This document shows positions 5,105 through 39,810 of a stretch of DNA of 40,856 bases, piece by piece. The number at the start of each line of letters is the position of its first letter. Position 1 is the first letter of the stretch. The notes under the pieces are model-generated. The model saw only the letters and a program-made list of their open reading frames with translations, searched no databases and was not told the origin of the DNA. The stretch spans positions 1 to 40,856 of the IMG/VR virus record IMGVR_UViG_2561511241_000004. The stretch is one strand, 5' to 3'. Made by a program: the position numbers and the translations under genes. This stretch comes from a virus. Lineage: Duplodnaviria; Heunggongvirae; Uroviricota; Caudoviricetes.

Positions 5105-5158
5105 GGGCGGCAGAGCAGTCACGGAGTAAAAACTGATACCGCCAAACGTCACCAGAAA
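5105..5158 (-). ncRNA. dicF: DicF small RNA (ftsZ-targeting, Hfq-dependent in K-12)
   Basis: Minus-strand sequence UUUCUGGUGACGUUUGGCGGUAUCAGUUUUUACUCCGUGACUGCUCUGCCGCCC followed by a U-run; matches recollected DicF; sits just upstream of dicB as in Qin. Confidence 0.75.
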
Positions 5159-11162: not shown

Positions 11163-11420
11163 ATGCAGTTAATTGTTGATTACCCAGATCATAACATTTA
11201 TTCATCTTTTGTGGATGCGGATGCTGAACTTCGAGAGTTAAATGGTGGGGCAGTAGTTGTAATAACGGTAAAAATACCTCTTACTAGCACATCGGAACAG
11301 TTGTTTAATAAATACACTTGCGGGGAAAGTCTTCGTATTAAATTGAGGAATGGCGATGAATGGAAAATGTATTTCGTTATGCTTGATGGAGGGCGCTATA
11401 TATTTTCCTCGCACCTGTGA
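11163..11420 (+). CDS. hypothetical protein (85 aa) in AT-rich DNA
   Basis: Strong AAGGAG RBS 5 nt upstream of the ATG. Confidence 0.5.
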   Translation: MQLIVDYPDHNIYSSFVDADAELRELNGGAVVVITVKIPLTSTSEQLFNKYTCGESLRIKLRNGDEWKMYFVMLDGGRYIFSSHL

Positions 11421-11673
11421 TAAAAATGATGAGCCGAGACTGTATTTACGGGACGCTGAGAGAATACCATAGAAAAGCTTATCTAACTTAAGTAGAATTG
11501 CTGCGGGTGCTTGAGGCTATCTGCCTCAGGCATGAACACCAAAGGCAGATAGAGAAAAGCCCCAGTTAACATTACGCGTCCTGCAAGACGCTTAACATTA
11601 ATCTGAGGCTCAATCTATGAACGGCAAATCTAGGTTAGCCTCTTACGTGCCGAAAGGCAAGGAGAAGCAGGCT

Positions 11674-11829
11674 ATGAAGCAGCAAAAGGCGATGTTAATC
11701 GCCCTGATCGTCATCTGTTTAACCGTCATTGTGACGGCACTGGTAACGAGGAAAGACCTCTGCGAGGTACGAATCCGAACCGGCCAGACGGGGGTCGCTG
11801 TCTTCACAGCTTACGAACCTGAGGAGTAA
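11674..11829 (+). CDS. hokD: Hok/Gef-family type I toxin (HokD/RelF-like, 51 aa)
   Basis: MKQQKAMLIALIVICLTVIVTALVTRKDLCEVRIRTGQTGVAVFTAYEPEE; AGGAGA RBS; in-frame upstream extension from 11617; mRNA 5'/3' complementary elements present. Confidence 0.8.
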   Translation: MKQQKAMLIALIVICLTVIVTALVTRKDLCEVRIRTGQTGVAVFTAYEPEE

Positions 11830-11972
11830 GAGACCTGGCGGGGGAGAAATCCCTCGCCACCTCTGATGTGTCAGGCATCCTCAACGCACCCGCACTTAAC
11901 CCGCTTCGGCGTTTTTTCCGTTGATTAACTCTAGTTATTAGAGAACCGAACTTTTATTGATGGGGCAGGGAG

Positions 11973-12365
11973 ATGAAGAAACTTGTTTTAGTTGCAGGTG
12001 TAATGATTGCAACAGTAATGTTGGGAGGGTGTGCAGCAAAGGTCGATCCAGCGTTGAAAGCAGAAGCAATGAAGCCACTAACATGTAATGATGAAAAGCA
12101 ATGTGACTTTTATTGGAAACGAGCGCAATTCTGGTTGGCTAATAATTCCTCATGGAAAATTCAAACGGCGACAGACACGCTAATTTCCACTTATAATCCC
12201 TCTCCAAATAGTCCATTCCTCGCTTATCAAGTGAGTAAAATGCCAAATGAAGATGGATCCTCAAGAATTTTCATCAAGCCTTTTTGCGATAATATGTTTG
12301 GCTGTCAACCAAACCCCTATCAGGCAGTTGTTTCCTTTAAAAACTTCGTTAAAACAGGGCAGTAG
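11973..12365 (+). CDS. lipoprotein (signal peptide with LGGC lipobox), 130 aa
   Basis: N-terminal MKKLVLVAGVMIATVMLGGC; Cys-rich mature part; AT-rich context. Confidence 0.65.
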   Translation: MKKLVLVAGVMIATVMLGGCAAKVDPALKAEAMKPLTCNDEKQCDFYWKRAQFWLANNSSWKIQTATDTLISTYNPSPNSPFLAYQVSKMPNEDGSSRIFIKPFCDNMFGCQPNPYQAVVSFKNFVKTGQ

Positions 12366-14003: not shown

Positions 14004-14363
14004 ATGCGTATAGAGTTTGTTTTGCCTTATCCGCCGACGGTGAATACTTACTGGCGACGTCGTGGCAACACATATTTTGTATCAAAAGTCGGTGAGCGTT
14101 ATCGCCGTGATGTGGCACTAATTGTTCGCCAGCAGCGGTTGAAATTAAACCTGTCCGGAAGGCTGGCAATAAAAATTATTGCAGAGCCACCGGATAAGCG
14201 CCGCCGCGACCTGGACAATATCCTGAAGGCACCACTGGATGCGCTGACGCATGCCGGACTTCTCATAGACGACGAGCAGTTTGATGAAATCAATATTGTG
14301 CGCGGACTGCCTGTTCCTGGTGGTCGGCTGGGGATAAAAATCACAGAACTGGAGTGCGCATGA
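14004..14363 (+). CDS. rusA: Holliday junction resolvase RusA
   Basis: 119 aa; RRRDLDNxxK motif and overall similarity to E. coli RusA. Confidence 0.85.
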   Translation: MRIEFVLPYPPTVNTYWRRRGNTYFVSKVGERYRRDVALIVRQQRLKLNLSGRLAIKIIAEPPDKRRRDLDNILKAPLDALTHAGLLIDDEQFDEINIVRGLPVPGGRLGIKITELECA

Positions 14364-15049
14364 ATAACCAGTATTTACAGTTTGTGCGTGAGCAGCTCAT
14401 TATCGCTACCGCTGATTTGAGTGGGGCAACAAAAGGTCAGCTTGAAGCCTGGCAGGAGAATGCCATGTTTGATACAGGGCGTTACAGGCGTAAAAAAATC
14501 CGGTACCGCGATGAAGTGACTGGAAGAATGATAACGCGGGATAGTCCACCGATACCGGGAAAACAATCACTGGCGAAAGGCTCATCAATTGCTCTGGTAA
14601 GTCAGGTTGAGTTTTCGACATCATCATGGCGACGGGCAGTTCTGTCTCTTGAAGAACATCATAAAGCCTGGTTGTTGTGGTGTTACAGCGGGAGTATTTG
14701 TTGGGAATATCAGATCGCGATAACACAGTGGGCGTGGAATGAATTTAATACTCAATCCGGTACCAGAAAAATTGCAGGGAAAACGCAGGAACGCCTGAAA
14801 AAATTAATCTGGCTGGCGGCGCAGGCATTAAAAGCAGAACTTTTTGGTGGGGAAGGTTATGAATACCAGGAGCTGGCATTACTGGCGGGAGTGACAACTA
14901 AAAACTGGTCCAAAACATTTACTCGTCACTGGGTTGCAATGAAACACATTTTTCACCGACTTGATAGTGAGGCTTTATTGTTTGTAATGAGAACACGTTC
15001 AAAACAAAAGGCGGCATTTTCAAAGCAAAGTGTTGCAAAAGTAGATTGA
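14360..15049 (+). CDS. putative late-gene antiterminator (Q-like), assigned by position only
   Basis: ATGA overlap with the rusA stop; last gene before the terminator, tRNAs and lysis cassette; no motif-level confirmation. Confidence 0.4.
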   Translation: MNNQYLQFVREQLIIATADLSGATKGQLEAWQENAMFDTGRYRRKKIRYRDEVTGRMITRDSPPIPGKQSLAKGSSIALVSQVEFSTSSWRRAVLSLEEHHKAWLLWCYSGSICWEYQIAITQWAWNEFNTQSGTRKIAGKTQERLKKLIWLAAQALKAELFGGEGYEYQELALLAGVTTKNWSKTFTRHWVAMKHIFHRLDSEALLFVMRTRSKQKAAFSKQSVAKVD

Positions 15050-15243: not shown

Positions 15244-15319
15244 GGCCCTTTAGCTCAGTGGTGAGAGCGAGCGACTCATAATCGCCAGGTCGCTGGTTCA
15301 AATCCAGCAAGGGCCACCA
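15244..15319 (+). tRNA. tRNA with anticodon CAU (Ile2/Met type, ileX/ileZ-like)
   Basis: Clean cloverleaf: 7-bp acceptor stem, GCTC/GAGC D-stem, anticodon loop CUCAUAA, TTCAAAT T-loop, CCA end; very similar to E. coli ileX. Confidence 0.8.
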
Positions 15320-15320
15320 G

Positions 15321-15397
15321 CCGCCACTAGCTCATCAGGAAAGAACGTCAACCCTTTAAGTTGAGTGTGCGAGGTTCGAGTCCCCGGTGGCGGTCCA
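15321..15397 (+). tRNA. tRNA-like gene with unusual anticodon loop CCUUUAA (C at position 33); identity uncertain
   Basis: Perfect 7-bp acceptor stem, TCAAC/GTTGA anticodon stem, TTCGAGT T-loop, CCA end; mismatches in D- and T-stems. Confidence 0.5.
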
Positions 15398-15399
15398 GT

Positions 15400-15476
<77 letters not shown>

Positions 15477-15479
15477 TAT

Positions 15480-15554
<75 letters not shown>

Positions 15555-39226: not shown

Positions 39227-39810
39227 TGGCATTCAGAATGAGTGAACAACCACGGACCATAAAAATTTATAATCTGCTGGCCGGAACTAATGAATTTATT
39301 GGTGAAGGTGACGCATATATTCCGCCTCATACAGGTCTGCCAGCAAACAGTACCGATATTGCACCACCAGATATTCCTGCTGGCTTTGTGGCTGTTTTCA
39401 ACAGTGATGAGGCATCGTGGCATCTCGTTGAAGACCATCGGGGTAAAACGGTTTATGACGTAGCGTCAGGGGACGAGTTATTTATTTCTGAACTCGGTCC
39501 GTTACCGGAAAATGTTACCTGGTTATCGCCGGAAGGGGAGTTTCAGAAGTGGAACGGCACAGCCTGGGTGAAGGATACGGAAGCAGAAAAACTGTTCCGG
39601 ATCCGGGAGGCGGAAGAAACAAAAAACAACCTGATGCAGGTAGCCAGTGAGCATATTGCGCCGCTTCAGGATGCTGCAGATCTGGAAATTGCAACGGAGG
39701 AAGAAACCTCATTGCTGGAAGCCTGGAAAAAGTATCGGGTGTTGCTGAACCGTGTTGATACATCAACTGCACCTGATATTGAGTGGCCTACGAACCCTGT
39801 CAGGGAGTAA
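39226..39810 (+). CDS. tfa: tail fibre assembly protein (Tfa)
   Basis: 194 aa, [18 protein letters not shown]... Tfa family; immediately follows stf. Confidence 0.85.
39656..39810 (+). repeat. direct repeat copy 1 (tfa 3' region, about 85% identical to 40697..40856)
   Basis: Aligned by eye: gcgcc(g/a)ct(t/g)caggatgctg(c/t)agatctggaaat(t/c)gcaacggaggaagaaa... Confidence 0.6.

Follow-up and report, generated by a model that had tools for sequence, protein, structure and literature searches.

The window analysed here, a stretch of 40,856 nucleotides, carries at positions 11470–11917 what is very probably one complete hok/mok/sok type I toxin–antitoxin module of the hokD/hokW subfamily. The flanking ORFs, identified by Pfam and by comparison with a colinear annotated genome, encode, each on the plus strand, a replisome organiser, DUF977, DUF968, RusA and the antiterminator Q. 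With replication genes before the module and DUF968, RusA and Q after it, the locus falls into the nin region of a lambdoid prophage. The module is co-oriented with both the replication genes upstream and the DUF968/RusA/Q genes downstream. A search of the window for a second hok copy gave none. Homologues of relB and relE are absent from the whole window (tblastn), which agrees with the observation in the first-pass annotation that the toxin gene has no adjacent relBE.

The hok toxin ORF (11674–11829, plus strand) encodes a 51-aa peptide of the HokD/HokW type, MKQQKAMLIALIVICLTVIVTALVTRKDLCEVRIRTGQTGVAVFTAYEPEE. Its earlier assignment to the Hok family was confirmed by a match to Pfam HOK_GEF (PF01848), whose cut-off of 22 bits it exceeds with a score of 76.7 bits (E = 9.8e-22). 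The peptide is 98% identical to K-12 HokD, from which it differs in a single residue. A Shine-Dalgarno sequence, AGGAG (11660–11664, plus strand), is located 9 nt upstream of the ATG at 11674. The ORF list also contains a longer frame, mok (11617–11829, plus strand, 70 codons), which is in frame with hok and has its own Shine-Dalgarno sequence GAGG (11605–11608, plus strand) 8 nt upstream of the ATG at 11617. The suggestion that this in-frame extension plays the role of Mok is supported by the conservation of the ATG and GAGG arrangement and by the annotation of mokW in 933W. A mok ATG lying 57 nt upstream of the hok ATG and preceded by GAGG is found in 97 of 107 intact loci, and the sequence GAGGC is invariant in the 30 homologous loci aligned below. 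In 10 of the 107 loci mok is out of frame with hok via a 1-nt insertion. Since these loci carry a frame-breaking insertion, it is the translation of mok and not the Mok peptide that is conserved.

Two complementary boxes had been reported on either side of the 51-aa ORF, and both are present, the 5′ box GCGGGTGCTTGAGG at 11503–11516 and the 3′ box CCTCAACGCACCCGC at 11879–11893. The reverse complement of the 3′ box, GCGGGTGCGTTGAGG, has one extra G compared with the 5′ box. In the RNA this is a single bulged C, flanked by 8 and 6 bp when the boxes pair. The duplex energy is −27.9 kcal/mol, whereas control duplexes from same-geometry segment pairs drawn from the window have a mean of −9.5 kcal/mol (sd 3.8), with 2 of 3000 as good. 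Folding of 11500–11915, a check proposed along with the boxes, gave a minimum free energy structure that is closed by exactly the box helix. Its energy of −173.1 kcal/mol compares with −128.3 kcal/mol for shuffled sequences (z = −7.3), and 0 of 100 shuffles were as good. The boxes correspond to tac, the translational activator element (11505–11516, plus strand), and fbi, the fold-back inhibitory element (11879–11893, plus strand, with a conserved core at 11879–11891), the latter identified by folding, duplex energy and covariation. tac pairs with 11879–11891 in the full-length RNA and with a third element, ucb, in the truncated RNA. The outermost pairs, 11503/11893 and 11504/11892, do not form in 18 and in 20, respectively, of the 30 homologues and probably lie upstream of the transcription start at about 11505. 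The conserved core of the helix is therefore given as 11505–11516 with 11879–11891.

For the comparative analysis, one scan of a species-representative genome collection yielded 40 loci, and the 30 intact ones were aligned with MAFFT. These loci have 58–98% protein identity and cover seven genera, with members from Escherichia, Kluyvera, Pseudocitrobacter, Citrobacter, Pantoea, Photorhabdus and other Enterobacteriaceae. In per-sequence duplex calculations all 30 loci have a 5′/3′ helix of 12–14 bp located 45–56 nt past the stop codon. RNAalifold applied to the 30 loci recovered, unprompted, the tac/fbi helix, the 5′ hairpin, the Sok-target hairpin and the 3′ hairpin, with compensatory changes at 16 pairs, several of them in the Sok-target hairpin. 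The fold-back pairing proposed in the first-pass annotation is thus the tac/fbi helix, as found both by single-sequence folding and by RNAalifold with covariation. Within this helix, tac columns 3–8 are paired in 30 of 30 loci, and GAGG/CCUC is replaced by GAGA/UCUC or GAAG/CUUC in some of them. Over the 14 tac/fbi pairs, 83% of the cells are paired, compared with 34–52% when the 3′ partner is slid by 1–3 columns. The MAFFT alignment places the distal half of the helix one column out of register in Photorhabdus and Pantoea, whose helices lack the bulge, so the value of 83% understates the conservation. By per-sequence duplex both genera have uninterrupted helices of 12–14 bp.

It could be argued that the 5′/3′ complementarity is fortuitous, or that it serves another purpose, for example as the remnant of a mobile element's inverted repeat, and that it plays no part in the folding of the mRNA. 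A pairing of this strength can indeed arise by chance, as the 2 of 3000 window pairs above demonstrate. However, the helix occupies the same position in loci of 58–98% protein identity across seven genera, and the homology block shared with 933W ends directly after the 3′ box. The covariation refutes this explanation: tac/fbi pair 6/406 occurs as U-A in 19 sequences and as C-G in another 10, a double change that is joined by other compensatory changes elsewhere. Double-change cells in the helix number 18 against 8.0 expected, and none of 500 shuffles reached the observed covariation score. We regard a chance origin as practically negligible and treat the boxes as the tac/fbi helix in what follows.

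The remaining elements of the leader were assigned by folding and by comparison with known families. The Rfam model RF01794 (“sok”) matches 11505–11679 on the plus strand from end to end and scores 111.7 bits, well above the gathering score of 59 (E = 9e-25). As its alignment shows, the model describes the open conformation of the hok mRNA leader, comprising the tac stem, the Sok-target hairpin and the hairpin between the mok Shine-Dalgarno sequence and dcb, and ending at the hok AUG. A plus-strand match to a family named “sok” is therefore no contradiction. A weak minus-strand Rfam match (18 bits) and matches to ceN48 and isrK were discarded, as they are below the gathering scores. The upstream complementary box ucb, AAGCCCC (11557–11563, plus strand), is the anti-Shine-Dalgarno element of mok and pairs with the mok Shine-Dalgarno sequence in the full-length RNA and with tac in the truncated RNA. 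The Rfam consensus has the tac/ucb pairing as its first stem. In the ucb helix the GCC/GGC pairs are invariant in the 30 loci and the adjoining pairs covary. The downstream complementary box dcb, AGCCUC (11637–11642, plus strand), pairs with the mok Shine-Dalgarno sequence both in the truncated fold and in the Rfam consensus, and it overlaps the −10 element of the Sok promoter, as it does in plasmid R1 (PMC9841398).

In the R1 system, the full-length mRNA is closed by tac/fbi with the mok Shine-Dalgarno sequence sequestered by ucb, and after 3′ trimming the tac/ucb and mok Shine-Dalgarno/dcb pairings define the translatable, Sok-accessible form (PMC9841398). We observed both alternative folds for the window copy, in which all of these elements are present and conserved. 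The full-length RNA folds into the published closed state with tac/fbi paired and ucb on the mok Shine-Dalgarno sequence, and the segment 11505–11860, which ends at the 3′ hairpin, folds into the open state (z = −5.6). The open pairings are GGG.GCUU with AAGCCCC for tac/ucb and GAGGCU with AGCCUC for the mok Shine-Dalgarno sequence and dcb. The R1 model also includes a metastable 5′ structure that sequesters tac (PMC9841398). By analogy, the hairpin at 11507–11533 (plus strand) is a putative metastable 5′ hairpin that may sequester tac in the nascent transcript. In isolation, the 31-nt 5′ end forms an 11-bp hairpin of −19.6 kcal/mol (z = −5.0).

The predicted full-length hok mRNA spans 11505–11917 on the plus strand. 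Its 5′ end is put at about 11505, where the Rfam model starts and where the spacing from the −10 element would place it. A promoter-like site at 11470–11498 (plus strand) consists of a −35-like TAGAAA (11470–11475), a 17-nt spacer and the −10 element TAGAAT (11493–11498), and it is the sole sigma-70-like match that a generic promoter scan found in 11350–12050. The −10 element ends 7 nt upstream of the predicted start and is kept in 933W and Rac. The −35 region is a poor match and is not conserved in either of them. The stretch homologous to 933W and Rac runs from a little before 11493 to a point past 11893. On the 3′ side, a stem-loop at 11836–11859 (plus strand), upstream of fbi, is the putative protected end of the processed, translatable mRNA. 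It was recognised by folding and conservation as a 10-bp hairpin of −19.6 kcal/mol (z = −5.0) and is conserved in the 30 loci, with compensatory changes at two of its pairs. Mutation of the equivalent 3′ stem in R1 destroys the truncated mRNA (PMC9841398). The 3′ end of the full-length mRNA is predicted to fall after fbi, at or beyond a weak terminator. Alignments identify this terminator, CCCGCTTCGGCG-TTTTTT (11900–11917, plus strand), as a decayed intrinsic terminator that lacks two G of the 3′ arm relative to CCCGCTTCGGCGGGTTTTT of K-12 and Rac. Its fold reaches only −3.1 kcal/mol, which is no better than shuffles, and a generic terminator scan of the locus reported no terminators. The decayed sequence is also present in the closest genomes.

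The antisense RNA Sok is predicted to be a 71-nt transcript of the minus strand at 11555–11625, transferred from the sokW annotation of 933W. As the alignment between the window and 933W is gap-free over 11503–11893 with an offset of 9987, sokW (L001 1568–1638, minus strand) maps to window 11555–11625. This position fits the earlier expectation of a Sok-like antisense RNA around 11560–11640 on the minus strand, and the promoter region is identical to that of 933W. The predicted Sok folds with −30.0 kcal/mol (z = −5.6) into a free 14-nt 5′ tail and a long terminator hairpin with a 3′ UUUU. Its promoter, assigned by homology, lies at 11632–11660 on the minus strand, with the −10 element TAACCT (complement of 11632–11637), a 17-nt spacer and the −35 element TTGCCT (complement of 11655–11660). 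The predicted Sok start at 11625 is 7 nt downstream of the −10 element, whose TAnnnT pattern is found in 30 of 30 loci. The suggested search for a minus-strand promoter had a mixed outcome: the generic scan did not report one, and homology to the validated sokW promoter did. The scan missed the site because TAACCT fits 3 of 6 consensus positions and falls under its threshold. In Sp5, northern blots showed that sokW is transcribed and that the full-length hok mRNA is processed to a truncated form, and sokW was identified as the antitoxin; without the sokW promoter there was no protection against HokW, which sokW provided in trans brought back in part (PMC8621323). Changing the sokW −10 element from TAGGTTA to CCGGCTC (primers YO-421/422) led to the loss of antitoxin activity (Takada et al. 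2021, PMC8621323).

The closest characterised relative is hokW-mokW-sokW of the Stx2 phages 933W and Sp5 (VT2-Sakai), which aligns with 92% of the locus at 93% nucleotide identity, has the same element order and likewise resides in a lambdoid prophage. The annotations mokW, hokW and sokW are found at this locus in both the 933W and VT2-Sakai phage records. The tac, fbi, ucb, mok Shine-Dalgarno, dcb, Sok promoter and hok Shine-Dalgarno elements are identical to those of the window. The two copies differ in the C-terminus of Hok, which is HokD-like in the window (FTAYEPEE, with G40) and HokW-like in 933W/Sp5 (FVDYESEK), and in Mok codons 2–5, hence in the first nucleotides of Sok (AACGGCAAATCT in the window and CTGAACACATGT in 933W). 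The neighbouring genes differ as well, and 933W has no terminator whatever after fbi, whereas the window retains a remnant.

K-12 hokD (relF) of the cryptic prophage Qin is 98–99% identical to the window over the hok Shine-Dalgarno sequence, the ORF, the 3′ hairpin, fbi and the terminator region, and both genes lie in lambdoid prophages upstream of Q-type genes. Upstream of the hok ATG the homology extends for no more than about 16 nt, to the hok Shine-Dalgarno sequence. In K-12 the promoter, tac, ucb, the mok start and the whole of sok are replaced by relB-relE, whereas the window has no relBE. Because K-12 hokD shares sequence only from the hok Shine-Dalgarno sequence on, the window represents the intact, ancestral-type form of a locus that K-12 carries as a relBE-fused fragment. 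The intact form without relBE is the common one. Among the IMG/VR prophage loci that are long enough to judge, tac is present in 74 of 77.

More distantly, hok/mok/sok (parB) of plasmid R1 has the same regulatory logic and element order (PMC9841398). The shared elements are the tac/fbi, ucb/mok Shine-Dalgarno and tac/ucb pairings, dcb, a hok gene coupled to mok, a Sok that covers the mok start and the protective 3′ hairpin. The Hok proteins are about 44% identical, a figure given for HokW versus Hok (PMC8621323). The R1 system is carried on a plasmid, in contrast to the prophage-borne window copy, and post-segregational killing has been shown for R1 hok/sok and not for the hokD/hokW subfamily.

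The locus is already known, being annotated and experimentally characterised in close relatives. A 451-nt query of the locus matched 4727 of 5426 complete E. coli genomes (~87%), the number of matching places per genome reaching 10 at most (median 2), and in 3949 complete genomes at least one place covers at least 80% of the query. In the records listed, the feature beneath the match is “type I toxin-antitoxin system toxin HokD”. Since about 87% of complete E. coli genomes have a match and a close relative has been characterised, the window locus is correctly recognised but ordinary. The value for annotation is small, as the NCBI pipeline already names the gene hokD and the mok and sok of the subfamily are annotated in the 933W GenBank record. 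Genome annotations give the toxin ORF alone and omit the mok, Sok and mRNA elements mapped here. The peculiarities of the window copy are local ones, namely a minority Hok E40G allele, the decayed terminator and a hypervariable patch in the 5′ tail of Sok.

The E40G change results from A to G at 11792, which is the sole difference over 451 nt between the window and the best-matching complete genomes. Glutamate occupies position 40 in all 24 other distinct homologues. Seven residues, M1, C16, T18, L30, C31, E32 and E41 in R1 numbering, are conserved in >80% of 1264 Hok peptides (10.1101/2025.08.07.668861), and the window peptide has all of them except the equivalent of E41, which is Gly40. The exact G40 peptide is found on 156 public contigs, where it is named HokD, and the exact 70-aa Mok-Hok frame on 118. 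These identical records point to a real minority allele rather than an error. The hok ORF also contains UACGAA (11812–11817, plus strand), the Tyr47 codon followed by GAA, as a candidate motif for A-to-I editing by TadA with Tyr to Cys recoding. According to a stated rule, TadA recoding is possible where Y at logo position 48 precedes a conserved GAA (10.1101/2025.08.07.668861), and TACGAA is invariant in 30 of 30 loci. Folding of the window sequence did not predict a stable local TadA-substrate hairpin around UACGAA, and we therefore do not claim editing for the window.

The combination of G40 with a damaged terminator raises the question of whether the architecture is intact while the module has functionally decayed. 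E40G would then attenuate or inactivate the toxin, the terminator would alter the 3′ end of the mRNA, and the locus would be a harmless relic, a status that has been suggested for several chromosomal hok loci. The near-universal Glu40, the single nucleotide that alone separates the window from its nearest complete genomes and the weak terminator hairpin (−3.1 kcal/mol) are in line with such decay, and the chromosomal hok loci examined in earlier work were unable to mediate post-segregational killing. On the other hand, an alanine scan found that R1 Hok E41A, the equivalent of E40, is still toxic on overexpression (preprint 10.1101/2025.08.07.668861), so E41 is not strictly required. The occurrence of the G40 allele on 156 contigs means that it persists in a lineage, which counts against decay. 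Every regulatory element is intact, which is unexpected for a dead toxin gene, 933W lacks a terminator after fbi altogether, and the Sp5 locus, with the same 93% identity to the window, is functional. We therefore consider decay improbable and favour a working module.

From these relatives we infer how a working window copy would be transcribed and processed and that its product would be toxic. By homology to R1 hok/sok and Sp5 hokW/sokW, a weak constitutive promoter would yield a stable mRNA of about 390–410 nt, and the 5′ tac box would be held in a metastable hairpin in the nascent transcript. In the full-length RNA, tac (11505–11516) would pair with fbi (11879–11891) and ucb (11557–11563) would occlude the mok Shine-Dalgarno sequence, so that neither mok nor the translationally coupled hok would be translated and Sok would be unable to bind. 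Slow exonucleolytic trimming from the 3′ end to the hairpin at 11836–11859 would remove fbi. Once fbi is gone, tac would re-pair with ucb and the mok Shine-Dalgarno/dcb hairpin would form, giving an RNA that is both translatable and a target for Sok. The unstable 71-nt Sok (11625 to 11555, minus strand), expressed from a promoter inside mok, would pair over the mok start region and lead to cleavage by RNase III. If the supply of Sok stops, because the element is lost, transcription is shut off or the prophage is induced, the pool of processed mRNA would be translated, and the 51-aa Hok would insert into the inner membrane and depolarise or kill the cell.

The biological role of the window copy is likewise approached through Sp5. 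HokW is toxic there and is neutralised by sokW in a partly RNase III- and Hfq-dependent manner, and a lysogen deleted for the locus shows no phenotype (PMC8621323). Upon treatment with mitomycin C, sokW is lost, and HokW is seen in the inner membrane roughly an hour ahead of the endolysin; cells with the locus arrest growth about 40 min earlier and release about twofold more phage after induction (PMC8621323). The best-supported role for the window copy, by analogy with Sp5, would be to help phage release and lysis on induction. Classical addiction, in which cells that lose the prophage are killed, or defence by abortive infection might be the role instead. Post-segregational killing and the exclusion of T4 are both effects of R1 hok/sok (PMC10305079), hok genes are fourfold enriched in prophages according to a published survey, and the mechanism reacts to any transcription shut-off. 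However, a published survey found that hok is not enriched beside defence systems, and the Sp5 study is the sole experiment on a prophage copy in the subfamily; its lysogen without a phenotype, earlier arrest and higher phage yield under mitomycin C (PMC8621323) speak against addiction or defence. We regard addiction or defence in place of lysis help as a credible but less than even prospect, and the roles are not mutually exclusive. Help with release on induction is thus the role that we prefer for the window copy.

One lead goes beyond the textbook module. The stretch of 16–22 nt encoding the single-stranded 5′ tail of Sok, which is also mok codons 2–5, forms a hypervariable patch that lies at 11610–11631 in the window. 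Between co-resident copies in one genome, 37% of the patch positions differ, compared with 6% elsewhere in the locus, third-codon positions of hok included. A tentative explanation, which we put forward with some doubt, is that the patch might act as a fast-diversifying “address” that keeps co-resident hok/sok copies orthogonal, so that each Sok would silence only its own hok mRNA. We did not find this idea described in the literature examined, and specialists may know it; a literature search for cross-talk between hok/sok paralogues gave nothing specific. If selection for orthogonality does act on the patch, it would explain how up to 10 matching places can exist in one E. coli genome without cross-silencing. 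The address of the window copy, ATGAACGGCAAATCT, is a minority one, being found in 10 of the 97 loci with in-frame mok, the window included.

The leader of the hok/mok/sok module has a hypervariable patch, sharply restricted to window positions 11610-11631. The patch comprises Sok nucleotides 1-16 together with the 6 nt that separate the Sok start from the Sok -10 element, and it coincides with mok codons 2-5. Across 75 prophage loci, all of which encode the same HokD, the column entropy of the patch was 0.68-0.87 bits versus 0.04-0.25 bits across most other leader columns. While 39 distinct variants of the patch were found among 97 loci, the mok ATG and its Shine-Dalgarno sequence are nonetheless retained. 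We also compared hok copies that reside within one genome, in E. coli ECMA0423 and four Photorhabdus species. The Sok tail mismatches at 44 of 119 positions in these pairs, which are not phylogenetically independent, versus 100 of 1675 positions elsewhere, a figure that includes hok third-codon positions. The patch could act as an orthogonality "address" or, by another reading of the same variation, could simply be the sole stretch that is free of constraint.

The mok reading frame is variable as well. In 97 of the 107 intact loci, mok is an N-terminal extension of Hok. The mok ATG is out of frame with hok in the remaining 10 (loci L003, L009, L010, L013, L018, L021 and L023-L026 of the comparison set); in some of these, such as L003, L009 and L010, the shift is due to an insertion of 1 nt (AAAGGTCAAGG). 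Therefore the frame relation between mok and hok is not conserved across the family.

Within the toxin gene, an A to G change at window 11792 yields Hok E40G, at a residue that is invariant across 24 other homologues. Over the 451 nt compared, the complete E. coli genomes nearest to the window differ from it at this position alone, and the exact E40G allele was found on 156 public contigs. The hexamer UACGAA (window 11812-11817), which consists of the Tyr47 codon followed by GAA, is invariant in 30 of 30 aligned loci. UACGAA is the A-to-I editing motif of TadA, through which Hok mRNAs reportedly have this Tyr recoded as Cys (10.1101/2025.08.07.668861). Folding of the window copy predicted no local hairpin around this motif.

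An inspection of the 3' flank indicated a damaged terminator. The 3' arm of the intrinsic terminator located 3' of fbi (window 11900-11917) is two G short compared with K-12 and Rac, and the element no longer folds as a stable hairpin. Transcription may read through into the plus-strand ORF directly 3' of hok (window 11973-12365), which encodes 130 amino acids and has no Pfam match. Judged from its sequence, the N-terminus of this product, MKKLVLVAGVMIATVMLGGC, looks like a lipoprotein signal. In phage 933W, the same slot downstream of hok holds a different gene, YgiW/YdeI-like, and the slot therefore looks like a variable cargo site.

Several relatives are rearranged or damaged. Locus L022 of Kluyvera sp. 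CHPC 1.2972 (777-1716) shows the order relB-relE-hok, colinear with K-12 Qin over 948 nt at 90% identity; its Hok is only 68% identical to the window Hok. As L022 carries this colinear arrangement, the relBE-hok fusion is a conserved and transferable three-gene module rather than a K-12 oddity. In two IMG/VR prophage contigs (L109 and L113, about 1-600), an opposite-strand ORF that reads like a putative transposase-type gene stands in place of the hok leader. On both contigs the breakpoint is 16 nt 5' of the hok ATG, at the very position where K-12 hokD adjoins relE, and the junction is the K-12-type ACAGGAG. The hokD-type copy L007 on the E. coli ECMA0423 chromosome has an intact Hok ORF and an internal deletion that takes most of tac (…GACTGCATGTGGCTATG…); this copy is likely a regulatory wreck.

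The Rfam family RF01794, named "sok antitoxin", matches window 11505-11679. The family describes the leader of the hok mRNA on the plus strand, with a consensus that stops at the hok AUG; the actual Sok strand reaches only 18 bits with it. Taking the strand of the match as the antitoxin strand would mislead. Other Rfam matches above the gathering score are the DicF sRNA on the minus strand (window 5105-5157, 69.9 bits), four plus-strand tRNA genes (15244-15551) a short way 3' of the gene for antiterminator Q (14354-15049), and the plus-strand IS009 RNA (39569-39767, 225 bits) close to the window's right end.
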